From positions 1-64,000 of the forward strand of contig NC_057755.1 of NCBI RefSeq assembly GCF_004010195.1: a stretch of DNA of 64,000 nucleotides. Direction: 5' to 3'. Shown one piece after another: positions 7,013 to 58,730 of the stretch. The DNA comes from Chiloscyllium plagiosum. Taxonomy: Eukaryota. The notes under the pieces were generated by a model, which saw only the letters and a list, made by a program, of their open reading frames with translations, did no database searches and was not told the DNA's origin. Numbering within the stretch: the stretch's first letter is position 1; each line of letters opens with the position of its first letter. Made by a program: the position numbers and the translations under genes.

Positions 7013-7015
7013 AAC

Positions 7016-8736: not shown

Positions 8737-8803
8737 ATGACGTTCTCAATCCATCATGTGCAGAGAATATTTTACGTGACACTTCCAATTGTAACAATTC
8801 CTG
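8737..8803 (+). CDS. GPR139/GPR142-like class A GPCR gene 1, coding exon 1 (MTFSIHHVQRIFYVTLPIVTIP)
   Basis: Runs from ATG to the donor CCTG|GTAAGT, 67 nt (phase 1). It joins in frame to the acceptor at 15579/15580 and supplies the missing first half of TM1. Homologous exons lie at 58664 and 44266. Confidence 0.88.
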
Positions 8804-11099
8804 GTAAGTGCCTGGTACCATTGAAGTTGTGTGAATCTGTGTAAGGATTCTCTGCGGGTTTACACGACCATAGATCCGTGCTCATGCGAAGTACAAGAGA
8901 GTTTTAGTTAATTACATTGCCTTGGAATGAAAATGTTGGAAAAGAAACAGCTCTGAAGAAGTTGTATAAAGCACAGTATATTGGCAGTCCAGTGTGCGGT
9001 AGCTCCATGAAGGAACTTACTGCAATTCCAGTTTAGAAATAGCAATCGTAAGTCATTTCACAAAGTGAGAGATATAGGGATTCTGGTGTGAATATTACAT
9101 GAGAGTTGTTTTCTTTGGAATGGCACTGCGAGTCATATTTTGCTGAATACATGAAAGTCGTGTCCTTTTGTTTCATTTCTGGATTGTTTTGAGGTTAATG
9201 AGTATTATGCATGCACCGCGTGTTCATTGCATTTGAATCGGGATTACAAGTACGTAGTTTGATTTGTTCTAGTTTATCGTCATTTCCTTTGTTTTGTTGT
9301 GGAAACCCCAATATTTGCAGAATTACGTGTTAATGATTCAGCAAGCGATCACTGTGTTAAATCAAGACAAATCAGGTAATTATCCATCAAGTTGGATTTC
9401 TGTCTGGGATCTGGTTTCTTCTGTAATTAGTCAGCTGGTGTCAGAACAGATGTGATGCTATTAAACACAGACTAACACCTGAGCAACTGATGAATTAAAC
9501 CCACTCCTCAAATAAATTGTGCCCTAATTGTATCTGTCAAGATCCATTATATGCCCCAGATCCTGATCAGGCATCCACACTGAGAAATAATTCCATATTA
9601 GCCCTCCCAAAGTTACAACCCTCTCACTCAAACAGACAACACAAAACACCTGCGAGACCTGCAATGCAGAAACTACATGAAACACTGGGTGGCTTACAGC
9701 TGTGATGTTGTGTGCAGTACTCGTCAGCACTAAGCAGTGAGGACAAAATTGCACTGATGAGTGTTTAGAAGAGATTTTCAAGAATGGTAGTGTCATTTTC
9801 CATAAACCGAGGCAAACGATATTTGATGTGATTGGAATGGACAAAATATAAAGGGTCTTTGATGGAGACTTGTCTCCCCGATAACCGTACCGTTTAAAAG
9901 GAGACACAGAGTGAGAACAATTGTCAGGAGGATGATCGAGAACATAAGCTCTACCCTTCCATTCAGAAGAGAATGGTGCGACTGGAACTCACTGCCCAGT
10001 TTGGGTGGTAACTTGAGATGACCAAAGTTAACTCATATAAAGGGAACTCGGATGTGCACGTGAGGTGTAGAAACCCTCAACGCTGTGGACCCCGTGATGG
10101 AAAGTCGAATCAGAACAGTTAACTTGTTTATTCAGTTGATGCAGGAATGAATGACCTCTTTAATTTCCAGGAGTTTCGTGCATTTCTGTGGGCTTTCAAA
10201 AAGACTAAGGAATGTAAAAGCGTATTTGCTTGGTTGGTTAACTAGCCTGTTTCTGTGTTGTCCATATTCCGCCACTGGATCACTCTGGACTGTTAAAGTG
10301 AGTTCCAGAGGGCTGTGGTTATCTTCCAGTTGTTCCTTGAGGAAGTGTTTGAAGCTTCATAATTTTTACAATGCATGAAGCCATTTTACATGGGGAGGAA
10401 TAATATTGACTAAGGTTCGAACATAAGGATTTATCAATTCATTAGGTTAATATTGCTTACTTTTTTTGCATTATTTGTATAACAAACATAAAGGATTTTT
10501 CAGACAAGTATTGTGAAGTCTTGTACTGTCTGTGAACTGCTGAGTATTCGGATTATCACTTCAAATATTAATTGTCCCTGACTTAAACTGAACAACACAG
10601 AGTCAGAGAGACCGGATTTTTAACATATTGTATTTTATTATACAATGGATTAAAGCTGTTACATTCAGTACTTGCAAAAGTGAACTGTCTGTTTCCTTTT
10701 GCATTGCGGACTTCATTTATAAAATATCAAAAAACGCATTCCAAAAGTTTCTGAGCCAGATAATGCAGAGAATGCAACAAAAAAGTCACTTTTCCCTATT
10801 TGCATTTTGCTTTGTTTGCTGACTGAAAGTACAAGCAAAATAGGAACATTTGCGACATATGACAAATAATTGTTTACTTTCCAAAACAAATTATGAAAGA
10901 TTCAGTGAGTTATCAAATCCTCAGTTTATCATCACGGAGGCGGGCTTGGTTTGTGGTTCGTGCCTTTCATAATGAAAGAAATCTTTCTCAACTTTGTTAG
11001 CATTATCCTTCAAATAGTAACTACTTCTCAATTGCAACAACTCAAGGTTTTTGTATTACACTGACCAGGCGATTCTAGGTAATGCTCGATGGAGGGTAG

Positions 11100-11835
11100 G
11101 AAAAGATTGTGGCTATGAGGTGCTCCTTTTATGTGCTACTCTCAACTGCAAATCTTGCGCACAACCTCTCCCTCACCTCCGTCCAAGTCTCCAAAGGAAC
11201 CTTCAACATCCATCAAAGTTTTACCTGCACTTCCACACATGTCATTTACTGTATCCGTTGATCCTAATGTAATCTCATCTACATTGGAGAGACAGGACAC
11301 CTCCTCACAGAGCACTTCAGAGAACATCTCTGGAACACCCGCACCAACCAATACTGTCGCCCCATGGCCGAATACTTCAATTTACCCTCCCACTCTGTCG
11401 AGGACATGCAGGTCCTGGGCCTGCACCATCGTCACTCCCTTAACACCTGACGCCTGGAGGAAGAATGCCTCAGCAGCAACCAATCCCATTGCATCAATGT
11501 GGAGTTCACCAGTTTCCTCATTCCAGCTCCCCAAAACCTTATCTCAGTTCCCGCCTTCCAGCTCGGCACCGCTCTCCTATCCTACTTGTCTGTCTTTCTT
11601 CCCACCTATCCACCCTATACTCCCCTCTGACCTATCATCTTTACCCCCACCTCCATCCACCTATTGCACTCTCAGCTACATTCCCAATGTTCCACACCCC
11701 TCCCAGTTATGTCTCCAACTTCAAAACCCCCAACCTTATTCCTGATGAAGGGCCTTTGCCTGAAAGGTCGCTTTTCCTGCTCCTTGGATGCTGCCTGATT
11801 TCCTAGGATTTTCCAGTATCACACCCTCGATTCTA
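11100..11835 (+). mobile_element. Penelope-like element 3' fragment (GIY-YIG remnant plus terminal repeat with hammerhead motif), in the GPCR intron
   Basis: 'acctgcacttccacacatgtcatttactgtatcc' (CTSTHVIYCI), the same sequence as 53349-54516, and CTGATGAAGGGC..GCCTGAAAGGTC at 11742-11769. Confidence 0.85.
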
Positions 11836-11879
11836 TTCCTTGGAATACGTTCTGCGAAGTTATTTGGGTTTAACTGAGA

Positions 11880-14715
11880 AATAAGGAAGCAATGATCACC
11901 GAACTGAGATTGTATGGCAGAACAACACCCCCCCCTCCCCCCACCACCATCCTCCTCCCCCCGATGAACACAGTAGTCAGCGGGAATTTGAGATATACAT
12001 TTTTTAAGGAGACCTCAGTTACCTGTAACAATAATAGGGTGGGAATGGGAGGGAATTTTAACTTTCCAAACACAGTCTCAGACTTCTGTAGTGTTAAGGG
12101 TTTCGATGGAAAGGAATTTGTTAAGTGTGTAGAAGAAACATTTCTGATTCAGTATGTGGATGTACGTACTAGGAAAGGCTCGGCACCGTGGCACAGTGAT
12201 TAGCACTGCTACCTCACAACGCCAGAGACCCAGGTTCTGTTCGGTCCTCAGGCGAATGACTGTGTGGAGTTTGCACATTCTCCTCGTGTCCGCGTGAGTT
12301 TCCTCTCACGGTCCAAAAATGTACAGGCTAGGTGAGTTGGACAGGCTAAATTGCCCGTAGTATTAGGTAAAGGGGTAAATGAGGGGAATGGGTCTGGGTG
12401 GGTTGTGCTTCAGCGGGTCGGTGTGGATTTGTTGGGCCCAAGGGCTTATTTCCACACTGTAAGTAATCTAAAAACAAAACTTGATCAACTCTAAGGAAAT
12501 ACGGCAGGACAAGTGATTGAGGTGTGAGTGATGAAGCTCTTTGTGTTATTCGTTTTAATATTCCGATGGTAAAGGATAGACCTGAACTAAAAGTTGAAGT
12601 TCTGAATGACAGGAAAGCCAATGTTGATGGTACCTGGCAAGAACTTTCAAAAATTGATTGGGGCAGATGTTCTCTGGTAAAGGGACAGGTGGAGAATAGG
12701 AAGCCTTGAAAAATTAGGCAACGAAAGTCCAGAGATTATATGTTCCTGTTTGGGTGAAAAGCAAGGCAGGTAGCTTTCGGGAATGCTGAATGATGAGGTA
12801 ATTGAGGTTTTGGAAATACAAGAAAGGACGCATTTGTCAGATATGACAGCAAAGATCGAGTGAATACTAGAAGAGTATAACGGCAGTAGGAATATACTTA
12901 AGAGGGAAATCAGGAGGTTAAAAAGGAGACATGAAATAGCTTTGGATAATAAGTTCAGGAAAAACCCATGATGCTTCATATATACATTAAGGACAAAAGT
13001 GTAGCTGTGTGTGGAATTGCAGGAGATGGTGGAAATACTAATTGAGCATTTTTGCTTCATTATTAAGAGTGGAGAAAAACATGGAAGATACAGAATGTGG
13101 GGAAATAGGTGGTGACGTCTTGAAAAATGTCCATCTTGCGGAGGAGGTGGTGCTTTATTTCGCAAAAAGTATAAAGGTGGATAAATACCTAGGACCTAAT
13201 TAGATATACCCTAGGATTTTTTGGGAGCTTGGGAAGTGGTCCCAATGTTGAGATATTTGTATCATCGGTGGCTGTAGGTGAGATGCGGGTAGAACGGAGG
13301 TTGGCTCAGGTGGCGCCACTACTTTAGAAATGTGGTAAGGAAACGCCAGAGAGCTATGGACTGGGGAGCCTGACGTCGGTGGGCAAGATTTTGGAGGGAA
13401 TACTCAGGGACAGGATTTACATGTATTTTAATTGGCAAGGACAGAATAAGCACTGTCAACATGGCCTTGTGTGTGGGTAATCATGTCTCACAAACTTGAT
13501 GTGTTTATTGAAGAAGTTATGAAAAGGATTGATGAAGGCAGAACTTTGGACGTGATCTACGTGGACTTCAGGAAAGCGTTCAATCAGATTCCTCATTGTA
13601 GAGTAGTTCGTAAGGTTATATCACACTAAACTAAGGGAGACCCATCCTTTGGGACAGAAGTGTCTCGAGATAGAAAACAGAAGTTGGTGATGGAAGGTCG
13701 CTTTTCAGACTGGAGGCCGGTGACCAGTGATGAGCCACAAGGATCGGTGCTGGATCCACAGCTTTTCCTCATTCATTCAGATGAGTTGGATGTGAACACG
13801 GGAGATTCAGTTAGGACGTTTGCAGAGGACACCAAAATTAGAGTGGAAGTGGGCAGCGAAGAAGCTTCCTTCAGTGTACAACGGGATCTTAATCAGATGG
13901 GACAATTGGCCAAGGAGTGGCCGAATGGATTTTAATTTAGACGCATGTGAGGTGCTGTATTTTGGAACGGAACATCCAAAAGGACACATACAGTTAATGG
14001 TATGGTCGTGAGGAGTGTTGCTGAACAAAGAGATTTTGGATTGCAGGTTCATTGTTCCTTGAAAATGATGTCTCAGGTAGACAGGATGGTGAAGAAGACG
14101 TTTGCATACATTCCTTTATTGGTCAGAGCATTGAATATTGGAATTGAAAGGCAATGTTGTTGTTGTACAGGACATTGGTTCGGCCACTTTTCGAATATTG
14201 TGTGCAATTCTGGTCTCGCTCCAGAAGGAAGGATGCCTTGAAACTTGAAAGGGTTCAGAACGATTTATCAGGACGTTGCAAGTGGTAGGGTACTTGAGCT
14301 ATAGTAAGAAGCTGAAAAGGCTGGGTCTTTTTTCCGTGATCTATTAGAGGCTGAGGAGTGACGTTGTGAAGGTTTGTCAAATCATAAGGGGTAGGGACAT
14401 GCTAAATATACAAAGTCCTTTCCCTGGGTTGGGGGAGTCCAAAACTAGAGACGATAGTTTTAGGGTGAGTGGAGAAAAATTTGAAAGAGACCGAAGGGGC
14501 AACGTTTTCATGCAAAGAGTGGTGTGTGTTTGGAATGAAGTGCCAGAGGAAATTATGATGGCCGCTGCAATTGCACCATTTAAATATATTGGATGTTAAA
14601 TTAATACAAAGGGTTTAGAGGTATATTGATGCAAATGGGACTAGATTGATTTCGGAAATCGGGTTGGCATGGTCAATTTGAGCTAAAGTTTCTGTTTCTG
14701 TGTTGTACATTTGCT
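11880..14715 (+). mobile_element. Degenerate CR1-type (HER1-like) LINE ORF2 in the GPCR intron
   Basis: 'GGNFNFPN...EFVKCVEETFLIQYVD' (endonuclease), 'FSDWRPVTS.EPQGSVL.P.LF' and 'FAEDTKI' (RT), 'RVVCVWNEVP' (3' end). Confidence 0.9.
12178..12475 (+). mobile_element. HE1-like V-SINE nested in the CR1 (copy A only)
   Basis: Head 'ggcaccgtggcacagtgattagcactgct', V-domain 'gtgtggagtttgcacattctcc', tail 'gtaagtaatcta'. Absent at the paralogous site (about 62555). Confidence 0.88.
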
Positions 14716-15579
14716 CCAACTATACACCTACATTCACCTATTATGTTAGAGCAGTGTAACAAATGTTCCATAGTATGTGAATATCAACAGTTTAAATCTC
14801 AATTCACTTTTAGAGATGAATCCCTGTCTTTTGGTTGCAATGATACGGTCTTGTGCAGGAAGAAACCGGAGATGATATTTGAGGTCAGTGACCCACGTTC
14901 AGATGAAGTTGTTTTTATGAACAGTGATTCCATTAACTCTGTTTCTCTCTGCACAGATGCTGCCATAGCTGTTGGCTTTTGCCAGTTATATTTGATTCTG
15001 TCTCATGTTTTCATCATTCTAATATATTTCATTTATTTTATGAAAATGATTCGCTTTCCAACCTTCTTCCCAGAAGCAATTATTACAATCAAAGAACCAG
15101 AAGACGCCCTGTGTTCCATTCACTTTCTGCTGTCAAATCGATACAAAATCTACACTCATTCCAGCTTCTAGCACTAGTCTCGTAGTCTCGAATGTTATGA
15201 CGCTTCAAGTGTTCATCCAGGTAGTTTTTAAAGTTTGTGAGGTTTCCTGCTTCCACGACCCTCCCAGTCACTGATTTACCAGACCCCCACCACTCTCTGG
15301 GTGAAAACCTCTTCCTCAGCTTCTCTCGAAACCTCTTCGCTTTCATCGTAAAAATTATGCCACCCTGTCATCTGTTGATCGCATGCTCACACTTAGTCAA
15401 ACCCAGGAGTGAGCAGTTTCGAAATAGGTAGGCCACAGGAGCTGTCCAGTTCAAACTCGACATCGGAAACCTCCCAACTAACCCAGTTGGGTGCTAAGAT
15501 CTTCCATTGCTCTCTGGGCCGACGGAAGAACGTTTGATCATTAATTTATGATTTGTATTTTATCTCCTGTCTCTTTCAG

Positions 15580-16454
15580 CAAATTTTCTGGTGATTCTCG
15601 TCATCACACGTGGGAATTGCGGTCTCTCTAAATTCACAACGTGCTGCCTGTTGGCGATGGCAACATCGTATATAGTGTTCATTCTCACAAAGATTGTACT
15701 GTGGGAACTCAATAATTTTTATTTCCCAAGATGTTTCCTGGACCTCAGCCCTGTGTGCAGTGCTGTCTTTGCCTTGGCTCGGGCAGCCACGGACTGTTTA
15801 GTCTGGTTCACTGCCCTTTTCTCCTTTGATCGTTTTGTGGCCATTTGCTGTCTGAACATGAAGAGGATGTATTGGACAGAGAAAGCCTTGGCTGTGGTTC
15901 TGGCTACAACTGGCATTCTGGTCTGTTCAAAAAGCATTCCCTTCTATTTTCAGTTTAAACCGGGATGGATAATTGACAATGTTCTGTGGTACTGTCAAAC
16001 AAAGTCAATTTATTCTACTGATCCCAGGTGGCTGGGGTTTAAGTGGCTTGATATCATTTTAACTCCTTTAATCCCATTTGTATTAATTCTGTTGATGAAC
16101 ACTCTGGCGGTCAGGTACATTTTAGTGGCCAGTCGAGTCTGCAAGAGCCTGAGAGGTCAGAGGAAGGGAGGGAGTCACAAAGACGCAGAGATGGAAAACC
16201 GGCAGAAGTCAATAATTTCCCTCTTCACTATATCCACCAGCTTCATTCTTCTGTGGGTAGTGCACGGTGTAAACGTCTTATACTTTAACATTAAAGGAAC
16301 GTATCGTTGGAGGGACAGTACTCTCGTCGTTTTTACATTCATCGCAGAAATTCTGAAGGATTTTAGCTGCAGCACGAACACATTATTTTATGCAGTGACT
16401 CTGCCCAAGTTCAGAACGAAGTTCAGGAATGCGGTGCATCAACTGGTCAAGTAA
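15580..16454 (+). CDS. GPR139/GPR142-like class A GPCR gene 1, coding exon 2 (TM1 end to C-terminus; spliced product 313 aa)
   Basis: Polypyrimidine acceptor 'tatctcctgtctctttcag|C' and an open frame with hydrophobic helices. Motifs: RGNCGLS, PVC (TM3 Cys), FSFDRFVAIC, WYC (ECL2 Cys), 'LTPLIPF..ILLMN', 'D.EMENR.KSI..LF.IS.SFILLW', 'CSTNTLFY...KFR'. Confidence 0.92.
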
Positions 16455-17142
16455 AGTCTTCACTAAACGACTCAGCAAAACAACTGAGAGAGCCCCAGAG
16501 GCAGCTGCAGTGTTCTCAGTGAAGGAATTGCTCATGTACGGTCAGGATTCCATCAGCACAATCACATGGATCTGAATATAACACCCAGCGGTTTTTCAGG
16601 TGGTCGGGTAACAGGCTGGCTCAGGAACAGGCTGCTCATCCTGATTGACTGAAGGATTGACACACATACGGACACACTGACAATGAGCAGCAGCAGACCA
16701 TTCAGCCCTTCATATCTGATGCTGCTGACGGCCCAGAAAATCGTAGCTCATCAAATTGTGCCATCAAACCCGCATTTCCCTGTGCACCCGAGTAGCCCCA
16801 CCGCCCGCCAAATCATCACCCAAAACTTGAATAGGAATATATCTACATCCCCTTCAAACAATACTCAAGTACTTGACAAAGGGACAGCAGGTAAGGGAGC
16901 AAGAGGTGACTGTAAGGGGCCGGGTAAGGTTTTAAGAGATTGCAGGAATGATTCGAAATGACCGACTTGCTGTGAAAGATGGGTTCAGCTGGAACTTTGG
17001 GTCTTCACTGACTGATCTGTGGATGAGTGTTCAAGACCAACAGGAGCGTCCTTTGCATTTCCACTGCAGAGGAGGAAGGGGAGGGACAGAAACAGTCCCT
17101 CCTGCACCATGATGATTGTCAGACTCTCTCTGTTCAGATCAC

Positions 17143-17148
17143 AATAAA
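17143..17148 (+). terminator. Candidate polyadenylation signal for GPCR gene 1
   Basis: AATAAA about 690 nt after the stop, just before the sequence turns into repeats. Confidence 0.35.
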
Positions 17149-17279
17149 CACTTTATTACAATAAGGGAAAGGCTCCGGGTGCTGATGATCTCCTCATAGC
17201 AATTGGTTATTAGAGACGCACGTTGGCTTTTGAAATAATTTATTGAGTCCACCTTCTGTCTTCTCCATGCACAAGGATA

Positions 17280-17580
17280 TTGTTTTCTGTCTCTCTTTGA
17301 CTCTTTCTATTTGTGCTTTGTCGATTCCTCTCTTTCTCTCTCACGCATTGCCCCACTTCTCAGTTTCTTGCTCAGTCTCTCTCACACTCGCTCTGTCTTA
17401 CTCTGTGTTTCCCTGCCTGTATCGTTCTGTCTCTGTCTCTACCTATCTGTCTGTTTGTCTGTTCCTCTGCCTTCCTCTATGTTTATTCTTCTTGTCTCTG
17501 TGGCTAGCTCATTTTCTGTTTCTGTCTGCTCTCTCTCTCGCGCTGTCTGTGTCTTTTTCTCACATTTTCTCAGTTTAGTA
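17280..17580. repeat. Degenerate (CT)n/(CTGT)n low-complexity tract
   Basis: Pyrimidine-rich dinucleotide-derived sequence. Confidence 0.8.
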
Positions 17581-17862
17581 CCCACTCACTTGCATTGACT
17601 CAAATCCCTTCCTGATCCCTTCATTCGCTGATGCTTTGCCAGGAATTGATTTTGAAAAATACAAAGTACCGCAGATACAGCCAGCAATAATTTGACACAT
17701 TAAGTAAGTGTGCTGAACTTTGATCACCCCTCTTTCCTCTCACTATGGCTGGGCGGGAGGGGTGTTCATGTGTTTCCCTATCATTGTGTGAGGGACTGTG
17801 TGTGTCTCTCTGTGGGGGTTGGGGTTTCATTGCCTTTGTGGGAATGTCATTCTGTGTGTCAA

Positions 17863-20190
17863 AGAGTCATAGAGTCATAGCAATGTACAGCATGGAACCA
17901 GACCCTTTGGTCCAACCTTTCCATGCCGACCAGATATCCCATCCCAATCTAGTTCCACCTGCCAGCACCTGGCCCACATCCCTCCAAACACTTTCTCTTG
18001 ATATACCCATCCAAGTGCCTCTTAAATGTTGCAATTGTACCAGCCTCCATCACATCCTCTGGCAGCTCATTCCAAACACGTACCACTCTCCACGTGAAAC
18101 CGTTGCCCCTCAGGTCTCTTTTATATCTTTCCCCTCTCATCCTCAACCTCTGCCCTCTAATTCTGGACTCCCCGATCCCAGAGAAAATACTTTGTCCATT
18201 TATCCTATCCATGCCCCTCATAAATTTAAAACATCACCACTCAGCCTCCGACGCTCCAGGGAAAACAGCCCCAGCCTGTTCAGCCTCTCTCCATAGCTGA
18301 ACTCCTCCAACCTGGCAACATCCTTGTAAATCTTTTCTGATCTCTTTCAAGCTTCACAACATCTTTCCGATAGGAAGGAGACAGTATTGCACGCAATATT
18401 CCAACAGTGACCGGACCAATGTCCTGTACAGATGCATCATGACCTCCCAACGTCAGTACTCTTTACTCTGACCAATAAAGGAAAGCATACCAAACGCCTT
18501 CTTCACTATCCTATCTACTTGCAACTCCACTTTCCAGGAGATACGAATCTGCATTCCAAGATCTCTTTGTTAAGCAACACTCCCAAGGACCTTACCATTA
18601 AGTGCATAAGTTCTGCTAAAATTTGCTTTCCAAAAACGAAGCACCTCACATTTATCGACCAATGTCCTGTACAGATGCATCATGACCTCCCAACGTCAGT
18701 ACTCTTTACTCTGACCAATAAAGGAAAGCATACCAAACGCCTTCTTCACTATCCTATCTACTTGCAACTCCACTTTCCAGGAGATACGAATCTGCATTCC
18801 AAGATCTCTTTGTTAAGCAACACTCCCAAGGACCTTACCATTAAGTGCATAAGTTCTGCTAAGATTTGCTTTCCCAAAATGAAGCACCTCACATTTATCT
18901 GAATTAAATTCCATTCGCCACTTCACATCCCATTGGCCCATCTGTCCAGATTCTGTTGAAATCTGAGGTACCCTCTTCGCTGTCCATGACACCTCCAATT
19001 TTGGTGTCATCTGCAAACTTACTAGCTGTACCTCTTATACTTGCATCCAAATCATTTATGTAAATGACAAAAAGTAGAGGACCCAGTACCAATCCTTGTG
19101 GCACTTCAGTGGTCATAGGCCTCCAGTCTGAAAAGCAACTTTCCACCACTACCCTCTGTCTTCTACCTTTGAGCCAGTTCTGTATCTAAATGGCCAGTTC
19201 CCCTGTTTTCCATGAGATCTAACCTTGCTAACTAGTCTCCCATGGGGACCCTTGTTGAACACCTTACTGAAGTCCATATAGATAACATCTTCTGTTCTGC
19301 CCTAATCAATCCTCTTTGCTACTTCTTCAAAAAACTCAATCAAGTTTGTGAGACATGATTTCCCACGCACAAAACCATGTTGACTATCCCTCATCAGTCC
19401 TGGACTTTCCAAATACATGTATATCCTGTCCCTCAGGAGTCCCTCCAACAATTTGCCCACCACTGAGGTCAGGCTCACTGATCGATCGTTCCCTGGCTTA
19501 TCTTTACCACCTTTCTTAAACAGTGGCAACACGTTTGCCAACCTCCAGTCGTCTGGCACCTCACCTGTGACTATCGATGTTACAAATATTTCAGCAAGAG
19601 TCCCAGCAAACACTTCTCCAACTTCCCACAGAGATCTCGGCTGATCAGGTCCTGGGGATTTATCCACCTTTAACCGTTTCAAATCATCCAGCACTTCCTC
19701 CGCTATAGTCTGGACATTTCGCAAGATGTTACCATCTATTTCCCTACAGTCTATATCTTCATATCCTTTTCCACAGTAAATACTGATGCAATATTTCCTT
19801 ATAGTATCTTCCCCATTTTCTGTGGCTCCACACAAAGACCTCCTTGCTGATCTTTGAAGGGCCCTATTCTCTCCCTTTTGTCGTCAATATATTTGCAAAA
19901 CCCTTTGGATTCTCCTTAAATCGATTTGTCAACGCTATCTCATGTCTCCCTTTTGCCCTACTGATTTCGCTCTTAAGTATACTCCTTCTCCTTTATACTC
20001 TTCTCTGGTTTCACTCTATCTATCCTGTCTATACCTGACATATGCTTCCTTCTTTTTCTTAACCAAACCCTCAATTTCTTTCGTCATCCAGCCTACCCTT
20101 TCACTCTGACATAAGTATATTTTCTCTGGATTCTTGTAATCTCATTTCAAAAGTCTTCCCATTTTCCAGCCGTCCCTTTGCCTGCGAACT
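17863..20190 (-). mobile_element. 5'-truncated CR1-type LINE with tandem 3' tail
   Basis: 'KVDKSPGPD', 'VPDDWRLANV.PLFKKG', 'SQHGFVRGKSCLTNLIEFFEEV', 'VPQG.VLGPLLF.IYINDLD', 'KFADDTKIG'. The tail reads 'gagtcatagagtcatag' on +. Confidence 0.93.
18414..18899. repeat. 243-bp tandem duplication inside the CR1
   Basis: 18414-18656 versus 18657-18899; only three differences seen, all near the unit end. Confidence 0.95.
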
Positions 20191-20424
20191 TAATTCTTGA
20201 CTTCCAGGCAGCATTGCATAATGTGCAACAGATAATATTAGTATGGAAGACAAGAGCGCATCAAGTTAAGAAAATCTTATTTGCATGGAGAGGGGCCAAC
20301 CAGTAAAAGCCATGATATGGAAGTACTGGACTTTGACTGAGCTGGACAAGGTCAAATATTACATTACACCAGGTTAGAGTACAACAGGTTTATATGAAAA
20401 CACTAGCTTACTGTATATGAGTCA

Positions 20425-21485: not shown

Positions 21486-21954
21486 CATGAAACTCCTTCA
21501 GAAAATGGACATGTGAATCCTTCAGTGTGTCACGGTGCACAGTTTGCTCCCAATTGCGCATTTCAGCAACCTGGAAAAATCTAAATATCAGCATCTGTGC
21601 CTCCTGCACGCTGATAGCTGAACTGTTACTTCAGTTCAAGGACCTCCGTTCGACGAATGAAGCAAGACAGGGAATTTTCAATGAATGGCAGGATTCCAGT
21701 TGTTTCATCAATGTTTCAACAAAGAATGCAATATATACGTTTATTTTACGTTTGAGCAGTTTGTGTCTATTTTTAAATGTTGTTATATACGCCATGCAAT
21801 GTAGGAGCGGAATTAGGCCATTCAGCCCATCGAGTCATCTCTGCCACTTTTTTCGTGAAGGAACCATATCTCAATTCTATTGTCGTTCCTTCTCCCCATA
21901 ACATTTGATTCACTCATCAATCAGGATCCCATATTTCTCTATTTTTAATACAGT

Positions 21955-24597: not shown

Positions 24598-24616
24598 AGA
24601 GAGAAAGAGAGACAGA

Positions 24617-24650
<34 letters not shown>

Positions 24651-47160: not shown

Positions 47161-48642
47161 TGTCACATCTTGCAGCCCTGAGTCAATACAAGAGGACAGA
47201 TCCAAACAGGGAGACATTTTCTCATTCCTTCTTTAAAAATTGTGAACACCATGAGATTGCATTAGTTAAAAGTATTATTGACTTGGGAACAGTGATCTCA
47301 GACTCCTCGTTATTTTTAAGACGGAGCATGAAGAAATTGATTCTGAAATCCAGGTCCTGATTCTAAATAAAGAGAACAACACGGAATTGATGCATAAATG
47401 GGCAACGATGGATTGAGCAATCTCACTAAAAATGTATTCAGTGCGTAGGCATTAGGTAAACAATAAGAAAAGGACAACCATTATTCATTGCCCTCTCGTG
47501 CAACAATAAAATAGGAAAGGAGAGAGTGAGCAGCCCTGCCTGACTCTAAATCTTGTCAGGAATCTTTGTGATTCCCATCCATGTATTGAGACTGTGCTAC
47601 CGATGTTGGTGTAGAGCAGTCAGATTCATTCGCAGGTTCCCTAGCCAAAATCCAGTTCGGAGAGCACGTCCCACATGGAGGTGTGCAATATCCAGTAAAA
47701 AAGCCTTCTCTTCGTCCAGGCTGATGAGGCAGGCGTACACCTCCCCATTCTGCACACGGAGAATCGTTTCCCTGAGGGGCAATAGGGTCTCTCAGGTCAT
47801 CTTGCTCGCTACAGATGACCTTTGACAGGATTCTGGAATCTGTGTTCATCAGTCGTCCCCCTCCCCGTGCTGATTGTAGATTAAGTGGATGTTACATTTA
47901 CTCATGAAATCACACAGGCTACCTGTTCGAAGCAGACTGTTGTACATTCTCAGATGGTCCTCGTCAATCAAATCCCACAGAGGGGAATACAACTCGACCG
48001 ATAGCCATCACATCCGGGAACTTTACTCATTTCTAAGGACTCAAGGCCCGTCGTCAGCTGGTGAAGCATCTCCTGTGGGCTGCCGGCTAAGAACTCCATG
48101 ATAGAGTACATGAATGACTTGGAGGCTGTGCGGTCTGTGGGCTGCATGCCATGCAGTTTGCAGAAAAGCGTTCGGTGATCTTCAGTGGTTACTAAACCAG
48201 CTTCTTTCAGGCTACGGAGCACGGAGCTCTCCCTGTGTATCTTCTGGATGAAGAAACCTGAGCACGTCTCAACCTGTTCCGCACTGGGTGATTATCTTGG
48301 TTACTTTTCAGGCAAGAGTAAGGCTGACAGTCTCTTCACCTTCTGGAGATCGTCTGTGACATCGATCCCCATCGTCTGGAACAGGAGCACCCTCTGCACA
48401 CTTTTCTGGAGTTTGCACAATTTCCCCCGGCTGTCCCAAACTTTCAAAATCTTTGTGGATAAAGAACCTCTTACTGTTCCCCTTGACCGTTTCCCACACG
48501 TCTAATATAACCACAAAGACAGGGTTCACAGGTCTCCAACCTATGAAATTCATTTTTCGCAACGTTTTGTGGGTTTAGCTGTTTTTCATTCAGATTCCAC
48601 ATTCCCTTCCTGGCATGTAATGGCAGTGGTCAGAGAAAAACG

Positions 48643-49076
48643 TCAGTTTGAAGTGGGTGAATCTGAACGAGAACATAGGCGAAAGTGAGGACTGCAGATG
48701 CAGGAAAAGCACAGCAGGTCAGGCAGCATTCGAAGAACAGGAAAATCGACGATTCGGCAACAGCCCTTCATCAGGAAATCGTTCAGGGCAGAAGAGAACA
48801 CGTGGGGTTTGCAGTGAGAGAGACACTCACTGAGATCTTTGTAGAGAGAGGAGGAGGACTTGTTCAAGTCAGGCATCCTTGCAAGAGGATTTGCAGTGCT
48901 GTGAAAATCAACTCGGCGAAAGTGAAGACTGCAGATGCTGTAGACCAGAGTCTAGATTAGAGTGGTGCTGGGAAAGCACAGCAGGTCAGAAAACCTGATG
49001 AAGGGCACCTGTCCGAAACGTTGATTTTCCTGCTCCTGCCTGACCTGCTTTATTTTTAAGCACCACTCTAATCTTG
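48643..49076. mobile_element. Penelope terminal-repeat insertion (tandem plus inverted ends) inside the Tx1-like element
   Basis: Minus-strand end with a hammerhead motif (about 48748-48775), a second 'gcgaaagtga.gactgcagatgc' repeat, then a plus-strand CTGATGAAGGGC..GTCCGAAACG (48995). Absent at about 28885 in the paralog. Confidence 0.8.
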
Positions 49077-49679
49077 ACCGGATAAAAACAGGACATCTAT
49101 CCTTGAGCAGTTAAAATTTGGCTGACCAAGACCATCTGTATCAAGGCTGTGCTCCATTGGCAGCAGGCGGCGGAAGATACCATACAGCTTTAACCTTTTG
49201 CATCAGGAATCAGGACGTATTGTCTGGTTTGTTGTCAGCATCGCCCATCTGCATCAATGATGCAGTTGAAATCTCTGCCCAGAATGACAGGCCTGAGCAT
49301 CGCCGGCAGCAGTGGGAGCTGCTGCAGAACCTCCGGCTGCTCCCTCTTTACTATCGGGGCATACACATTAATTAGTCTCAGGGGAGCGTTCCTGTATGTA
49401 GCTTCTGCAACAAGGAGGAGCCCCATTACCACCACCTCCATAATCTTTGGAGATGGTGAAGTTGCCTCCTCACAGCTGAATACACGGGCCAAAGGAACAG
49501 TATTGTATATCCCCGACCAGACTGAAGGACTTTTGACCCTTTCCTGGAGCTGGTGGGGTGGCGAATCCTACAGTCCTGCAGAAAGTGGAGGTTTGCCTTC
49601 AAGTTGGCCATGTCATACCAGCAATTGTAAACCCCATTTAGAATTACCAAGATAACCAAACTCTGTTCACCCGCGGTCT

Positions 49680-50131
49680 GGTCACCAGGGACTCACTGCA
49701 TCCCAGTGATGTGTGGGAGAAAGTTCAGACACTCTGCACTGAGTCAGCTGTCTCCCGGGATGGTCATCTGGTCACCGGGGAGCTCCCTGTATTCCTTTGG
49801 TGTGTGGAGCCTGTCTTCACTGAGGTAGCTGTCTCTCGGTTGGTGCTATGGTCACGAGGGGACTCCTATACTCCCGTGGTGTGGGGGTGAACGTTACGAA
49901 GCTCTCCACACTGAGGTAGCTGTCTCCCGGTGGGTGGCGTGCTCTGGTCATCGGGGGACTCCTTGTGTTCCCGTGACGTGGGGGTGAAAGTTCCTACACT
50001 CTCCATACTGATATAGCTGCCTCCCAGGTGAGGCTCTGGTCCCTGGAGGACTCTCTGTATCCCCATGGTGTGGGGGTGAACGTTGCAAAACTCTCTGCAC
50101 TGAGATAGCTGCCTCCTGGGGCGGATGCTCT
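49680..50131. repeat. Diverged minisatellite, 5 units of about 80-95 bp
   Basis: Each unit reads 'ggtca..ggggactc...gtgggggtgaa.gtt...actctcca.actgag.tagctg.ctcc'. Confidence 0.88.
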
Positions 50132-53100
50132 GTGCCAGTGTCACCTGGACAAGAATGAAGCTGGGTAAGTTCCGACTCTGAGTCAGACAGAGTGACGGTC
50201 TTGCTCTCCTCCGGATATGGAACATCCTAGCTCCAAGTTTCCCAGATCTGTGGTGCAGTGGGAACTTATTGCATACCGTTGCTGCTGGTTGGGCTTCACT
50301 GGGCCATTCTGGACAACTGTTGCTTCTGGATTTGGAGTGTAATCCTCTCCTTCTCTCACGGTGAGGTGCCTCTTTATCTGTTGGTAGCCAGCCCTCCACA
50401 CATTTTCAGCTTCTGAGGAGCAGCTGGTATGTCCATCGTAGAGCTGCCTCTGTTTGTTTTACTGTGGAACAGGGTGTGGTGGTGGCAACCAATGAGATTC
50501 CCTTTTTCAGTTTCTCAGCTGTATTCACTACCCCTCCCCCCCCCCACCCCCCCCTCGCCACCCTCTTGCCTCGTTCATTTCCTCGTCCTTCATTAATCCA
50601 TCTGTTCAGGTCAAGGTTTCTGCTTGAACTATAGGGAGAGGATGAATAGGCTTCGGTATTTTCACTGGAAGCTCAAAGGCTGAGCGGTGACCTCATACAA
50701 GTTTACAAAATTATCAGTGGGATGGATACGGTAAATAGCCAAGAATCTTCCACGAGGGTAAGGGAGACCAAAAATAGAAGGGTAGCGGTTTAAGGTGAGA
50801 ATTGATGCATTTAAAAGGAATCTTATTTGTATTTTCCCACATTATACATCATTTGCCATCTTTGTACCCATTTGCTTAACCTGCCACTATCTCTCTGTAA
50901 ACTGTTTGTAATCCTCTTGCAACCTGCAATTCTACTTACTTTCTGTCGCCTGCAAACTTGCCTACAATAGATACATTTTCTTCCTCCAAGTCATAAATAG
51001 CTTGTGAACAGCTGTTTGCCCAGCACTTATCTCTGTGAAGCCCCACTGATCATGAGTTGCCATCCTGAAACAGAACCATTTATCCCCCTAACTGTTTCCT
51101 GTTCATTATCCATATCCGTATCTATACTGATGTACTACCTCTAACATCGTGGGACTTTATCCTATGATTTAACCTTTTGTGAGATACCTTGTACAATATG
51201 CTCTGGAAGTCCAAATACAACACATGTGTTGGCTCCCCCCATCCACTCTAGTTGAGATTTCTTCAGAAAACCCTAATAAATTAGTCAAACATGATTTCAT
51301 TTTGATGATGCCAATCTGACTCTGTTTGGCCTTCTCGTGTGAATTCTTCCCTATCTCCCCGTTTCCAATTTCAAACCCAGTGCCTCTATCATGAACGACA
51401 GGTAATGTTGAACTGCAGCAATTGTCTATTCCCGATTGGCACCATAGTGCAAACAGAACAGTGGTCAAAAGCTGGATTACGAGGGAAGTTACAGGAAGTA
51501 ATGGCTGCAAAAAAGTGCAGGAAGCAAACATAGCTCTGACAAGTGGGAACACTTTAGAAGTCAGCAAAGGAAGCACTAAGGGTTTGATTATGATGGGGTA
51601 GAATGGAGTATGAGAGTAAGCTGGCAGAGGTCATATCAAAGTAAACATTTCTGGATAAAGTTCTATCAGTATTCAAAGAAAACAAAATTGGTGAATACGA
51701 AAATGATTCCTTTACTGTCAGAAATGGGTAAATGTAAAATTGGAGAAAAGAAATCACTGAGAAGTTAAATTCAGACTTTGAGTCATGGAATCATCGACAT
51801 TCACAGCACAGAAACAACTCGTTCCAACGTATCGATGCCGACCGAATATCCTAAATTAATCCAGTCCCATTTAGCTTATTTCTGTCTTAATCGCTCCTAT
51901 TCATATCCCCATCCAGCCATCACAAAGGAGAACATGAACAACATACCCAAAATAACGGGGAGCACATGTGAAAGAACCTTCACTGACTTTTTGTATTTTT
52001 TTCATTGAAACTGGTGGGAACTGTAAACTTCTGGCTGAAAATAACTTGTGGCCTTTGAGACAGCTTGTGGCAAAAAGAACAGACCAAACCAGATGTGTTT
52101 CTTTGTTTGCGAAGCCAGGCCTGGCGACTAATTGTAGGCTCAGTCTTGATTTCTGTAGGCAGAACTACCACCGAGAAGAACATGATGTTCAACCAGATAG
52201 CAGAAGTTGACTGTTAATGAGATCCAACAAACATGCGAATTGGTTCTGCAAGTCTGGAAGGTACCATATGCTGAAACCGATGGCAGTCATTGAGTTGTAA
52301 TTGAATTCTAGGGATGATGTTGCCTGTCGGGGTGGAGACAAATATTACTTTGCCTTTCAATTTTCTCTGTGCTAATGTTATTCGGCATTTATTAAATAGT
52401 CAAGTTTTATTGTTTAAGATATAAAATGAGTGCCTGGAATTTAATTACATGCAAATACTGGGATTGATTACTTGAAATCTGATTCTGAAACAGTCGAGTG
52501 ATTACTGATGTCTTGTCCCATACTGGAGTATTTACTAATTTGCCCATACTGTTTAGGGCGTGTAGGCTAGGTCCATTAGTTCGAGGAAATGTAGAGTAAT
52601 AGGTGTAGGAGAGTGGGTCAGGTGGGATACGCTTCAGAGGGTCGGTGTGGACTTGTTGGGCCAAATGGCCTGTTTCCTCAATGTAGGCATTGTAATTTTT
52701 AAATTAAGAATAAATAATTCAATTTCATATAAACTTCATTCCACACACATATACAAAACATTGATATCTAATCAATTGCATCTATAGTTTGTAGGTTACA
52801 TCCGTGATAACGAATCTGCTATTCCAATCCTACGACCTGCAAAATGTAAGATTTGTAAATTAAGAGTCTGTAATATGAGACTCCAATGAAATAATCTCAT
52901 ATTATTGTTTTTAATTCGTTCCAAGAATGTAAGACTCTTGTGATCTGTGTATGCAACCGGCTCCGCCACATTGTTCGTGACATAAACAATATAATGTTGG
53001 CAGACAAGTACCAGATTCAATAATTCATTTTTGCCCTCAGAGTGTTTTCTTTGTTGTGTGTTGAGTCTCTTTGAAAAGTGACCAACTGGCAGTTTGATTC

Positions 53101-53348
53101 TATCATCACCTTCCTGTAGCAGGGGAAGATGCCAGGGGAAGGTGGCAGGGGAAGGTGCCAGGACGCGAGGGTGGGTTGTAGAGGGGCGTGGACCTGACCT
53201 GACAACTCCAACCCCTGTGTTACGAGCATCGATGGCAACTTTCAAGGGTTTCAAAAAATTCCATGTCAGTAAAATTGGTGTAGTGGTTAACGTTGCTTTT
53301 AAATTGTCAAATGCCTCCTGGCCTTGTTCTGTCCAACAAAACATTGTG

Positions 53349-54516
53349 GTAACAACAATGACTGCAAATGCTGGAAACCATATTCTGGATTAGTGGTGCT
53401 GGAAAAACACAGCAGTTCAGGCAACATCCGAAGAGCAATAAAATCGACGTTTCGGGCAAAAGCCCTTCATCAGGAAGACAGGCAGAGTGCTGAGGTGGGG
53501 GAAGGGGAATGAGGAAACTGTTGAAGTCCACATTGGTGCCCTGGGGTGGAAGTGTTCCGAGACAGAAGATGGTGCGTTCTTCCTCCAGGCGTCTGGTGGT
53601 GAGGGAACGGCTGTGAAGGAGGCCCAGGACCTCCATGTCCTCGGCAGAGTGGGAGGGGGAGTTGAAATGTTGGGCCACAGGGCGGTGTGGTCGATTGGTG
53701 CGGGTGTCCCAGAGATGTTCTCCAAAGCGCTCTGCTAGGAGGCGTCCAGTCTCCCAAATGTAGAGGAGACCGCATCGGGAGCAACGGGGATTCCATAAAT
53801 GATATTGGTGGATAGACAAGTAAGACTTTGATGGATGTGGAAGGCTCCTTTAGGGCCTTGGATTGAGGTGAGGGAAGAGGTATGGGCGCAGATTTTGCAA
53901 TTCCTGCGGTGGCAGGGGAAGGTGCCAGGACGGGAGGGTGGGTTGTAGAGGGGCGTGGACCTGACCACGAGGTCACGGAGGGAACGGTCTTTGCGGAAGG
54001 CAGAGAGGGATGGGAAGGAAATATATCCCTGGTGATGGGGTCCGTTTGGAGGTGGCGGAAGTGTCGGCGGATGATTTGATATATGCGAAGGTTTGTAGAG
54101 TGGAAGGTGAGCACCGTGGCATTCTGTCCTTGTTACGGTTGGAGGGTGGGGTCTGAGGGCGGATGTGCGGAATGTGGATGAGATGCGTTGGAGGGCATCT
54201 TTAACTACGTGGGAAGGGAAATTGCGATCTTTCAAGAAGGAGGCCATCTGGTATGTTCTGTGGTGGAACTGGTCCTCCTGTGAGCAGTACGGTGGAGGGG
54301 GATTAATTGGGAATACGGGATGGCATTTTTGCATAAAATAGGGTAGGAAGAGGTGCAATCCAGGTAGCTATGTGAGTCGGTGGGTTTGTAAAAAATGTTG
54401 GTGTCAAATTTAACGTCCGGGTGGAATGTGTTGCTGAAGTTGATGAATTGCTCAACCTCCTCGCAGGAGCATGAGGTGGCGCCAATGCAGTCATCAATGT
54501 AACGGAGGAAGAGGTG
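53349..54516 (-). mobile_element. 5'-truncated Penelope-like element (RT C-terminus, GIY-YIG endonuclease, hammerhead-bearing end) with 7-bp TSD
   Basis: 'FLRYIDDCIG', 'FYKPTDSHSYLD', 'CSRCGLLYIWETGR.L.ERF.EH', 'LGTL.PQG.NVDF'. CATTGTG occurs at 53342-53348 and 54517-54523 but only once in copy A (2422). Confidence 0.92.
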
Positions 54517-56210
54517 CATTGTGTTCTTCTTCAGCAAATCTGTTAACAGTGCCACGACACTGCTGCCGCTTGAAGAAAAGTTGCAGTATAATCCATTAGT
54601 CCCAAAAATTAAAGCACGTCTTTCTTCGAGCTTGATTGTGGAAATTCCTCAAGGCCTTCACCTTTGCGTTCCGTGGTATTAAACTTCCATGGCCAATGTT
54701 ACGTCTGAAGATCGTCACCTCTGCTTTCGTGAATTCAGTTTTGTTAAAGGTTGCAACTAAATTTGCTTCTCGTAGTCGTTCAAAGAGCTCTGCCAATTGT
54801 ACCATGTGATCTTTCCAGGATTCAGTAAAGATGCCTGCACAGTCCAAATAGACTGCAGAGACTGTTAACCCAGCCACAACTCTGTTCATGAGTATTTGAA
54901 ATTTGGCTCGTGTATCTTCATTCTATTAGGCGTCACTTTGAATTGATTTCGCTCATTTGGGAACAAAAACGCAGAAATTTGTTTCACTGTATCTGATAAA
55001 TTTATCTGCCAATAACCACGCAGTGAGTTCAACTTTGTAATATAACTGGCTTGTCCAACTTTATCTCTACATTCTGACAATCCTTTTGTTGGATACAAAT
55101 CCAATTTTTTTCACAGCGTTGACCTTCCCATAGTTTACGGAAAGTTGTTGAGTCCCGTCAGATTTGGGAACTAACACAATCAGTGAACTCCACTCGCTCT
55201 GACACGGTTGGATGATATCTCCATTGAACATTGCCTCCACTTCCTTCTGGACCTGCCTGGCTTTGAAAGGATGAAGCTTATAGGGGTTTTCTTTTATCAG
55301 AACAGCATTTCCAACATCTACCTCATGTAAAATAGTATTAGTCCTCTCGACTTATTGGTGTATATGCCCTCATACTGCTGTAACAGATATTTCAACGTTT
55401 TTGTTTGATCCTGAGACAGATAGTTTACTCACCTATCCCACTTCTCAAGAACTTCATTATTTGATATATTTTGAGGCATATCAAATTCCACAACGCCTGG
55501 ATTTGATTCCTCACTCTGCGGGGCAGTACCTAACACTTATTTCTCCAATTCCTTCTCCCGATTATGATCAGGTTTCAACATGTTCACATCACATACCTGA
55601 TACTGTTATTTTCTATCCGGCATCTTTACCAGGCAGTTCACCTGACTCATTTTTTAAAACATTTGTTAGGGACCACTAAACCTGGTTTTGAAGGGATCTC
55701 TTATCACTGGTGATAATGTCAATATATTATCTCTTCGCGAAAACGTCTGAATCTCAGTGTTTTTATCTGCCACCTGCTTCATTCCATAACATCCCTCTTT
55801 AGGTGCAGTTTACCTACTGAAATTAATGTCTCCCTCACCTCTGATACATGATTCAAGTGTTAGATCTCCGACTTTGGTCCTGTCAATTTCTCTTTAATTA
55901 ATTTCAAAGGGCCTCTCACTGCATATCTGAACATTAACTTATAATGAGTAGATTCCATTTGGGGCATCTCTAATGGCAAACACTACAAATGGGATACCGC
56001 TATCCCAATAATTCGGGTAATCCTGAGAGTATGCTCTCAACATGTTCTTCGGAGTCTGATGCCACCTTTGGAACATATAAGGTATTCAGGATGATACGCA
56101 CTTGATTTAAAGTGCTGAATACCAAAACTATCCATGACTTCCTTAAATAGCCTAGGAGTAAAATTAGACCCTTGGTCTGACTGAATCTCTCTGGGTCGCC
56201 CATACACGGT

Positions 56211-56537
56211 GGGCGGCACGGTGGCACAGTGGTTAGCACTGATGCCTCACAGCGCCAGAGACCCGGGTTCAGTTCCCGCCTCAGGCGACTGACTGTGTGG
56301 AGTTTGCACGTTCTCCCCGTGTCTGCGTGGGTTTCCTCCGGGTGCTCCGGTTTCCTCCCACAGTCCAAAGATGTGCAGGTCAGGTGAATTGGCCATGCTA
56401 AATTGTCCGTAGTGTTAGGTAAGGGGTAAATGTAGGGGTATGGGTGGGTTGCGCTTCGGCGGGGTGCTGTGGACTTGTTGGGCCGAAGGGCCTTTTTCCA
56501 CTCTGTAAGTAATCTAATCTAATCTAATCTCTAATCT
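56211..56537 (+). mobile_element. Full-length young HE1-like V-SINE inserted in the Gypsy integrase
   Basis: Near-identical to 29421-29736, with a (TAATC)n tail and TACACG on both sides. Absent from copy A (about 4130). Confidence 0.95.
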
Positions 56538-56930
56538 ACACGTGAAGGACGCTACTAGCTCCTGAACCCCTTTTGATGGAATACTCCATAATGGAATTGC
56601 TTCCAGAAATCTGGCAGGCACATCTATTAAGGTCAGCAAGAACTAGTCTCCACGTTATTTCTCAGGAGGGGACCTACACAACCAATCATAACCAGTTGAA
56701 ATGTGGGATTTGGCAACAAAGATGCTGGTTTAATTACTGCCTGTGGCTTATCTCCCAGTTGGCATGCATGACGCGTATAGCAAAATTTAACCACAAGCTT
56801 GTGCATTCCAGGTGAATAGAAATACTTTTGGACCGTACCTAGGTCTTTCCTACAGGTAATTCATGTGCTACCCGTAACACTTCCTGTCTGTATGGTACTG
56901 GCAACACAATCGGGTGCACTTCGGCCCTTG

Positions 56931-56987
<57 letters not shown>
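56931..56987. repeat. (AT)n(GT)n microsatellite
   Basis: Pure repeat, not present in copy A. Confidence 0.95.
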
Positions 56988-56988
<1 letters not shown>

Positions 56989-58012
56989 CTTTTTGTGTCT
57001 CGTCTTTCTGTTGCAAGTTTCTTAAACTTTCAGGACTAAACACTTCTGTCTGACCCTCTAATTATCCGGGTGTTTCCTGCACCATTACGTTCAAGGCCTC
57101 CACTAACTGAAACTCTACTCCTTCAACTTTCTCTTTAGTTCTTGCTTCATGCTATGCCTTATGATTATGGGATCTTGTTGCTGCACAGTCTGGAAAAAAT
57201 ACCAGGGTATTTTTCTTTTAACTCCTCAGTTCTCTGTTCTTCGTTGGGCTTCTTTACAACAAGGGGTACCACTTCTACCTTGGACCCTGCTAAATCGTTC
57301 CTAAGTGCAAACTGGGATCCCTTGAGCTAACAATCTGTCAGTCAGTCCCACTGTTACTTCCCCAGTCCTGTGTTTGCACTCCAGTCTGATGTTAAACGGG
57401 GGAATGCTAAATTTCTGTCCATCTATCCCGCACATTACCACTCTCTTGGGTAACAGGTCAGGGTAACAAATGCTTTCATATCTTACTATTATCCCAAAGT
57501 TGCAACTTTCTTTTCCTTTTCCCTCTCTTTTTTCGAGTAAGCTTTACTCACAGAGGCGAGTTCTTTATTGAGATCAGGCACTGACTCCATTCCCAGTCCC
57601 TTTCAGCAGCCGTTATCATTTTTAATTAGCAACGCCACCCCCCTCCTATATTACCACCCTCCCTAATCTTACTGAAACATCTGTAACCAGGAACCTCCAA
57701 CAACCATTCCTGTCCCTCTTCTATCCACGTTTATATTTGATTGAGAAGCAGTGTGCGTGCAAAATGAGAGATTCTATTGCGATGTCGGATTTATTAAAAC
57801 CAAAAATGTTTCGTCTCCATTTGCCAACCATCATCCCGTCAAAGAACCGCCGTTGACATCCAGGGAAGCCAAATCCCGGTGTTTAGGAGAACATTTCTCA
57901 ATAACCAGAAATTAATTTTCAAATGGACCAAGGCAAATGAAGGAAGACACTGAAATAAAATGAGATTTCAAAGTTGGATAGATGGTGTTGGGGTGCCAAT
58001 GCTATTATGTAC

Positions 58013-58240
58013 GAGCGGAAAGTGTATTGCTGGAAAAGAGCAGCAGGTCAGGCAGCATCCAAGGAGCAGGAGAATCGACGTTTTGGGCATGAGTCCTTCT
58101 TCAGGAATGGTTCCTGAGGAAGGGCTCATGCCCGAAACGTCGATTCTCCTGTTCTTTGGATGCTGCCTGACCTGCTGCGCGTTTTCCAGCAACACATTTT
58201 CAGCTCTGATCTCCAGCATCTGCAGTCCTCACTTTCTCCT
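58013..58240. mobile_element. Short palindromic Penelope-end insertion with TSD, upstream of GPCR gene 3
   Basis: Inverted arms of about 95 bp around 58108-58110. AATGCTATTAT occurs at 57998-58008 and 58241-58251 but only once in copy A (8313). Confidence 0.92.
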
Positions 58241-58663
58241 AATGCTATTATATATGTTGGCACAGTGGCTCAGTTGTCAGACCTTCCACCTCATAGGGCC
58301 AGCGGGTGGGTCTGGGTGGGACACCTTTGCAGGGTCGGTGTGGACTCGATGAGCCCATTGATCTGCTTCCACATTGTTAGGATTCTATGATTTTATTCAA
58401 AATGCAGATCCAATGTTTGCCTTTGACTGATTGAGATTTGTACCATGCAATAAACCTCATTTCTAAAAATACTCTTTGACGACTGGGAGTTGACTCACTG
58501 CTGTGACCTGTTTGCTCAAATTCTTGAATAAATGAATTGAACCACATTGTAATGTAACAGGCCCCCAAGCGATGCCAGCAGATATAAATGATAGGCTTCG
58601 AGATTATGTAGCCTCAGTATTGAGTACAGACAGATTGCCTGTACAAAGCGATTCAGGCAGAAA

Positions 58664-58730
58664 ATGACGTTCTCAATTCGTCAGGCGCGGGGAATATTTT
58701 ACGTGACCCTTCCAATTGTAACAATTCCTG
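58664..58730 (+). CDS. GPR139/GPR142-like GPCR gene 3, coding exon 1 (MTFSIRQARGIFYVTLPIVTIP); exon 2 outside the window
   Basis: Intact ATG, 67 nt, CCTG|GTAAGT donor and upstream TATAAA; 60/67 nt identical to 8737-8803. Confidence 0.8.

Follow-up and report, generated by a model that had tools for sequence, protein, structure and literature searches.

A lineage-expanded family of GPR139-like receptors in cartilaginous fishes, a candidate ligand-sensing repertoire, viewed from a partly decayed cluster in Chiloscyllium plagiosum

What do the receptors sense that are encoded in a small, rearranged gene cluster at the start of contig NC_057755.1 of the shark Chiloscyllium plagiosum? The stretch analysed, called the window, comprises 64,000 nucleotides (positions 1 to 64,000 of the forward strand; assembly GCF_004010195.1) and holds three copies, A, B, and C, of a G-protein-coupled receptor (GPCR) gene (Table 1). 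A first-pass annotation of the DNA had proposed a birth-and-death cluster of GPR139/GPR142-like orphan receptors and a candidate chemosensory-type repertoire. The copies are shown here to belong to a large family of cartilaginous fishes which, with a probability of roughly 0.62, grew by segmental duplication from one orphan receptor into a repertoire that senses many different ligands from outside. A role in sensory organs would be a narrower part of that reading with less than even odds, and the label "chemosensory" is applied to the family provisionally. The window itself shows an unremarkable part of the family that has partly decayed; of greater interest are the family as a whole, its sister gene, and the signature of its predicted binding pocket.

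A search with exon 2 of gene A gave 668 protein matches among 2295 candidates, and 190 matches came from an exhaustive search of representatives clustered at 50% identity. The family counts and residue tallies presented here rest on the best 120 of the 668 matches, which are not a random sample. All 120 come from sharks or rays, at 50-69% identity. Heterodontus francisci accounts for 71 of the 120 clusters, and 32 of these 71 are located on a single contig of 74.5 Mb. A lineage-expanded and clustered family had been claimed, and this is what was found; its turnover by birth and death is borne out by the clustered paralogs together with pseudogene B and duplications of differing age. Nine of the ten deep members that were looked up come from sharks or a chimaera, and the chimaera member nests within the shark/ray family. 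With members in sharks, rays, and a chimaera, the family is thus likely to be older than the divergence between chimaeras and the shark/ray lineage. The closest named relatives of gene A are from carpet sharks; the closest ones listed are 62-69% identical, none listed exceeding 69%, and gene A belongs to a subclade of carpet sharks in which the C-terminus is shortened. No OR, TAAR, V1R, V2R, T2R, or MRGPR was present among the nearest relatives that were identified.

Automatic annotation names nearly all members "probable G-protein coupled receptor 139"; other labels are "neuropeptides capa receptor-like," "opsin BCRH2-like," and "vasopressin V2 receptor-like." The RefSeq/UniRef models of this name from sharks, rays, and chimaera share the short N-terminus and the intron position with gene A, a matching short start of 21-26 residues being present in 52 of the 120. 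In many other database models the N-terminus is drawn from the intron or from a retroelement, and some models resemble fusions of neighbouring copies.

Variation within the family is concentrated in the predicted pocket. The entropy of 26 pocket positions in transmembrane helices (TM) 2-7 was compared with that of 145 other TM positions. Among the 71 H. francisci paralogs, it was 1.52 in the pocket vs 0.55 at the other TM positions (p 3e-07) and vs 0.78 at the 62 non-pocket positions of the extracellular half (p 3e-04). The order was reversed in 22 amphibian orthologs of a related single-copy gene (0.29 in the pocket vs 0.53), the mean identity of the two sets being equal (78% vs 77%). Conservation within the family is highest in the cytoplasmic half (0.38-0.50) and in intracellular loops (ICL) 1 (0.45) and 2 (0.43). 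Strings of ten pocket sites took 69 distinct forms in the 71 paralogs, 1 in the 22 amphibian orthologs, and 11 in 22 members of a second single-copy group. A pocket that is variable among paralogs and fixed in the amphibian orthologs supports the ligand-sensing repertoire suggested earlier, as it is the pattern that would be expected of a repertoire diversifying its ligands.

The two single-copy groups bear on the origin of the family. In a tree of 44 hand-picked rows (25 of the family, 5 of the amphibian/sturgeon group, 8 of the second group, and 6 of invertebrate type), the family was joined with the amphibian/sturgeon group at 100/99; the same joining received an SH-aLRT value of 89 in a quick tree of 76 rows. 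The amphibian/sturgeon orphan spans frogs, salamanders, a caecilian, and sturgeon (e.g., XP_069092602.1 of Pleurodeles; rows P0252 and P0400-P0419). This sister group has a motif at the end of ICL3 in common with the family, but it is apparently single-copy, has an invariant pocket, and is 26% identical to gene A. Its sodium site reads N2.50 in 22/22 and L3.39 in 21/22 sequences. An amphibian query retrieved roughly one cluster for each species, followed by sturgeon and next by members of the shark family at 32-33%; no teleost or amniote occurred among the 25 matches of this word-indexed search. The deepest, long-branched row of the family, P0186, is Scyliorhinus torazame XP_072342220.1, which is a candidate for the one-to-one ortholog, in sharks, of the amphibian/sturgeon gene.

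The second group also has about one cluster per species, in coelacanth (XP_005988539.1), teleosts/bony fish, sharks, amphibians, and turtles. It is the next clade out, and its genomic open reading frames break at the matching TM1 position; it differs in having shark members of its own (P0356 and P0367) and is therefore not the origin of the expansion. Its members (rows P0239, P0256, P0356, and P0367) are mislabelled GPR139 as well, and W6.48 is missing in 22/22. The group may correspond to one of the GPR210 sets in PMC6504862, which, in the sections used here, describes further subtypes similar to GPR139/142 (GPR210A/B) from bony vertebrates and leaves sharks unmentioned.

Scored with the family profile, members of the family reached 423-741 bits, the amphibian/sturgeon group 123-181, the second group 134-178, and human GPR139 58.6. 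Human GPR139 is the top PDB match for the family profile (E 4.7e-15) and for both single-copy groups, and all three are for that reason tentatively placed in a wider GPR139/142 grouping. By these scores, and with 668 relatives, the copies are GPR139-like and not GPR139 orthologs, as had been proposed. The original family call holds as far as likeness goes, but the nearest kin is the amphibian/sturgeon orphan.

One ancestral orphan receptor, apparently still single-copy in amphibians and sturgeon, has probably been multiplied by repeated segmental duplication; its ligand would have been amino-acid-like or a peptide. Each copy would keep a common G-protein coupling and would bind a small molecule or peptide of its own, most likely one from the environment or from microbes, with a sensory or barrier epithelium as putative site of action. 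Copies would be born and lost in the manner of clusters of olfactory receptors, TAARs, or MRGPRs. With less than even odds, this could even be an unrecognised chemosensory GPCR family of vertebrates, larger than any other chemoreceptor family in cartilaginous fishes, with hundreds of genes, recruited from a GPR139-like orphan in convergence with the Srw-type chemoreceptors that nematodes and molluscs derived from related peptide receptors. The distant matches of the family include invertebrate FMRFamide-receptor-like/Srw receptors, among which there are candidate chemoreceptors according to the part of PMC11682238 consulted.

Gene A has a coding sequence of 942 nt for 313 residues with zero internal stops, its splicing from 8803 to 15580 being predicted from the DNA and homology. 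Sequence and a structural model identify its product as a class A (rhodopsin-like) GPCR. Exon 2 matched Pfam 7tm_1 (E 1.2e-09; 38.4 bits, cut-off 30.5), and nothing besides 7tm_1 was found in Pfam at E up to 0.1. The predicted model contains TM2-7 and helix 8 (H8) at a pLDDT of 66.7, and Foldseek aligned it to NTSR1 at a TM-score of 0.77. The hydropathy profile has seven peaks, of which two overlap at TM3 and that of TM7 stays under the threshold. Gene A carries N1.50, a D/ERY-type motif, the cysteine pair between C3.25 and extracellular loop 2, W6.48, and N7.49/Y7.53, and these motifs are near-invariant across the 120 relatives. It had been described as an intact two-exon gene, which is correct for the frame and the splice sites but not for D2.50 and S3.39, both replaced. 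The sodium site formed by these two residues is common, not universal, in class A GPCRs.

The region directly upstream of gene A, a putative promoter, has 367 of 422 bases the same as in C and 206 of 255 the same as in B. Special conservation of this promoter was considered and rejected, as the excess of 87% vs 84-85% in the flanks is too slight. Short conserved blocks were observed upstream of A, B, and C in a three-way alignment (8477-8736, 44267-44521, and 58405-58663), with CCAAT-like (A and B), forkhead-like, and TATA-like words.

The common 67-nt phase-1 first exon reported for the three copies was found in all of them. Copy B was correctly called an inverted pseudogene: besides its altered donor, it has frameshifting deletions of 4, 11, 2, and 2 nt and one in-frame stop in exon 2, and its 3' loss, which took TM7, removes about 4.9 kb still present in A (16300-21183). 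It retains D2.50 and S3.39. The third paralog is present in the window as its exon 1 only; since the duplication carrying it runs past the window end, C is called here neither a gene nor a pseudogene. The gene-less upstream remnant also reported matches the distal upstream region of B in 884 of 1221 aligned bases (72% substitution-only identity), and tblastn gave no coding match near it; it may instead be a repeat. Blocks 27447-28858 and 47323-48608 were rejected as further parts of such a cassette, having no receptor match and looking like retroelement pieces. The segmental duplications that had been stated are far above chance (blastn E 0.0), and they occur in direct as well as inverted orientation. 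Substitution-only identity is 84-87% in the direct A-C blocks and 72-81% in the inverted A-B blocks; A and C being more alike than A and B, at least two duplications of different ages took place.

Table 1 Coordinates of the receptor copies and associated features in the window
Feature	Position	Strand	Description
Gene A, proximal upstream	8313-8736	+	TATA-like box at 8656-8662; common to copies B and C
Gene A, exon 1	8737-8803	+	67 nt, phase 1, GT donor; encodes most of TM1 after a short N-terminus
Gene A, intron	8804-15579	+	6776 nt, GT..AG; retroelement fragments inside
Gene A, exon 2	15580-16454	+	End of TM1 to stop; frame open; D2.50 is Y, S3.39 is L
First polyadenylation-type hexamer 3' of gene A	17143-17148	+	Candidate
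Remnant without gene	25280-26556	+	Resembles B distal upstream (45041-46315) and also 7798-7917 upstream of A
Inverted duplicate	37365-45627	-	Copy of about 7794-24610; carries pseudogene B
Pseudogene B, exon 2	41193-41889	-	Starts at 41889, ends at about 41193; TM7 (3' end) gone
Pseudogene B, exon 1	44200-44266	-	67 nt; GC donor instead of GT, -1 base changed
Direct segmental duplicate	50792-63999	+	Copy of 54-13844, at least 13 kb; carries C
Copy C, exon 1	58664-58730	+	67 nt, GT donor; exon 2 expected past window end

Several observations weigh against a working repertoire of outside-ligand sensors. D2.50 and S3.39 are invariant in 120/120 relatives and are among the residues replaced in gene A. 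Of the 60 near-invariant columns, gene A deviates at 6, these two included, and none of the other 120 sequences deviates at so many (the next has 4, and the median is 0); it also has 14 private departures vs 1-6 in its five closest relatives. Such losses suggest early decay; as the conserved amphibian gene also lacks the sodium site, a functional change in gene A is possible too, and the odds are about even between an early-stage pseudogene and a functional receptor whose sodium site has changed. P6.50 occurs in 0/120 family members, and the ratio of nonsynonymous to synonymous rates (dN/dS) of A vs C in exon 1 is 0.86, on just 7 changes. A proper exon 1 in only 52 of the 120 models fits low or restricted expression and silence alike. 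The pocket list is a standard one assumed, like the residue numbering, to apply here, with 4.50 placed approximately, and the ten pocket sites were chosen after the entropy was seen. The entropy statistics ignore kinship, treat positions as independent, and draw on those best-matching 120 proteins; the comparison is neither a dN/dS test nor one of positive selection. In the second single-copy group, conservation of the pocket was insignificant (0.71 vs 0.90, p 0.3). True GPR139 and GPR142 are absent from the trees, and monophyly of the family was supported at 88/72 with its deepest row (98/94 without it). Finally, the shark nose is dominated by V2R-bearing microvillous neurons in the account of PMC10116579, as far as used here. 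The top 50 genes of a brain-plus-olfactory library, as given in the relevant part of PMC11979771, include no GPCR; this says little, because known olfactory GPCRs are missing from them as well.

The repertoire could be real and yet serve immunity or barrier defence, in leukocytes, mast-like cells, skin, or gut, like MRGPRs or formyl-peptide receptors (FPR), a form of the same reading that we hold to be doubtful and less probable than a sensory one. Clusters, pseudogenes, and a variable pocket are known for the MRGPR and FPR families. MAS1 relatives are absent in cartilaginous fishes, by the portion of PMC8455134 examined, which leaves the role vacant, and olfactory work, in the sections of PMC10116579 and PMC6368271 drawn on, explains the nose by V2Rs. 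The distant invertebrate kin of the family are neuropeptide-type and candidate chemosensory receptors, and this argues for the sensory form.

A largely neutral expansion in duplication-prone, retroelement-rich DNA, with most copies silent or decaying, is unlikely. Such a process would agree with the three copies in the window, of which one is dead, one lacks invariant residues, and one shows its exon 1 only, with the closest listed relatives of gene A being just 62-69% identical, and with the count of proper first exons, which would fit weak transcript support. But full-length open frames are found across sharks, rays, and a chimaera, 60 alignment columns are at least 97% conserved in the 120 paralogs, and the variation is concentrated in the pocket rather than evenly spread. 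Moreover, dN/dS is 0.55 (0.39-0.81) even for A vs pseudogene B, which means that purifying selection acted on the two during part of their history.

Just as improbable is a set of receptors for diversified endogenous shark peptides or metabolites, of neuroendocrine or reproductive function. By fold and by profile, the matches are to receptors for peptides (neurotensin, CCK, ghrelin, and galanin), and GPR139 responds to Trp and Phe according to the pertinent part of PMC5430874; 69 pocket strings in 71 paralogs and fast turnover would be ill-fitting, unless the ligands were pheromone-like. Foldseek was dropped as a clue to the ligand, GPR139 not being singled out by it.

Residues of the amino-acid site of GPR139 (F3x33, H5x43, W6x48, and N7x38) were taken from the same part of PMC5430874. 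Gene A has R, D, W, and E at these four sites, and the tallies in the family are F in 11/120, H in 5/120, W in 120/120, and N in 0/120. Three of the four mutagenesis-defined residues are present in the amphibian orphan (F3.33, W6.48, and N7.39, in 22/22), and W6.48 is the one kept throughout the family. Human GPR139 (PDB 7vug and 9m42) is thus like the family in being its best solved-structure profile match, in having no P7.50, and in W6.48; it differs in a structural identity of about 18% and in three of the four amino-acid-site residues, mostly or wholly lost in the family. That gene A is an ortholog of GPR139 or GPR142 is very improbable, for the automatic names and the top PDB match of the profile are set against the lack of any PDB match of gene A alone (phmmer, E 0.001), the place of 7vug (the "class A orphan GPCR" entry, which is GPR139) at rank 18 and 18% identity in Foldseek, two other vertebrate groups scoring two to three times higher, and hundreds of paralogs.

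The remainder of the window is rich in decayed repeats. Decayed pieces resembling long terminal repeat (LTR) retrotransposons are located on the minus strand at 4921-6488 and 52796-54922. Pfam gave a reverse transcriptase (RT)/RNase H match at 52799-53389 and no match for 4921-6488, which we take to be LTR-retrotransposon-like by its motifs. Blocks 47323-50405 and 27447-28858 form a related pair; 49235-49567 presumably carries Tx1/L1-type endonuclease-like motifs (no Pfam match), and a short tandem array is located at 49677-50119. A head-to-tail duplication of about 1.7 kb (30520-32229 / 32205-33887) has 80% identity. Decayed copies resembling long interspersed nuclear elements (LINE), with a weak RT match, were observed at 12475-14711, 17882-20189, 34202-37236, and 62474-63999; two of them are at matching places in the introns of A and C and therefore predate the A-C duplication.

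The full-text literature searched, with most subscription papers outside it, held no description of the receptor family. There were 0 matches for GPR139 terms in 24 supplement files of PMC8455134 (one of them covered in part) and 0 matches for the family in term searches of PMC7677710 and of the supplements of PMC10529500 and PMC13188829. The genes are already in automatic annotation under a misleading name, and the family itself, as far as this literature goes, seems undescribed. Cartilaginous fishes are said to show a "relative paucity" of GPCRs in the part of PMC8455134 consulted, and their OR, TAAR, and V1R sets are very small, with 5-8 genes each, in the passages used of PMC6368271 and PMC10116579. 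The at least 71 distinct family clusters of Heterodontus outnumber these three sets combined. If the family is sensory, the receptor-poor picture of the shark nose or skin would change, and good chemical sensing in sharks despite few known olfactory receptors would be explained; if it is immune, it would be a missing innate-sensing system. The amphibian sister gene, with its GPR139-like pocket residues, offers a route to the ancestral ligand through Xenopus.

In conclusion, the family resembles the known repertoires (OR, TAAR, V1R, T2R, MRGPR, FPR, and the Srw/FMRFamide-receptor-like receptors) in its clusters, its pseudogenes, and a pocket that is variable in paralogs and fixed in orthologs. 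It differs from those repertoires in its separate ancestry and in having a phase-1 intron conserved within TM1; of the vertebrate families listed (OR, TAAR, V1R, T2R, MRGPR, and FPR), most are intronless.

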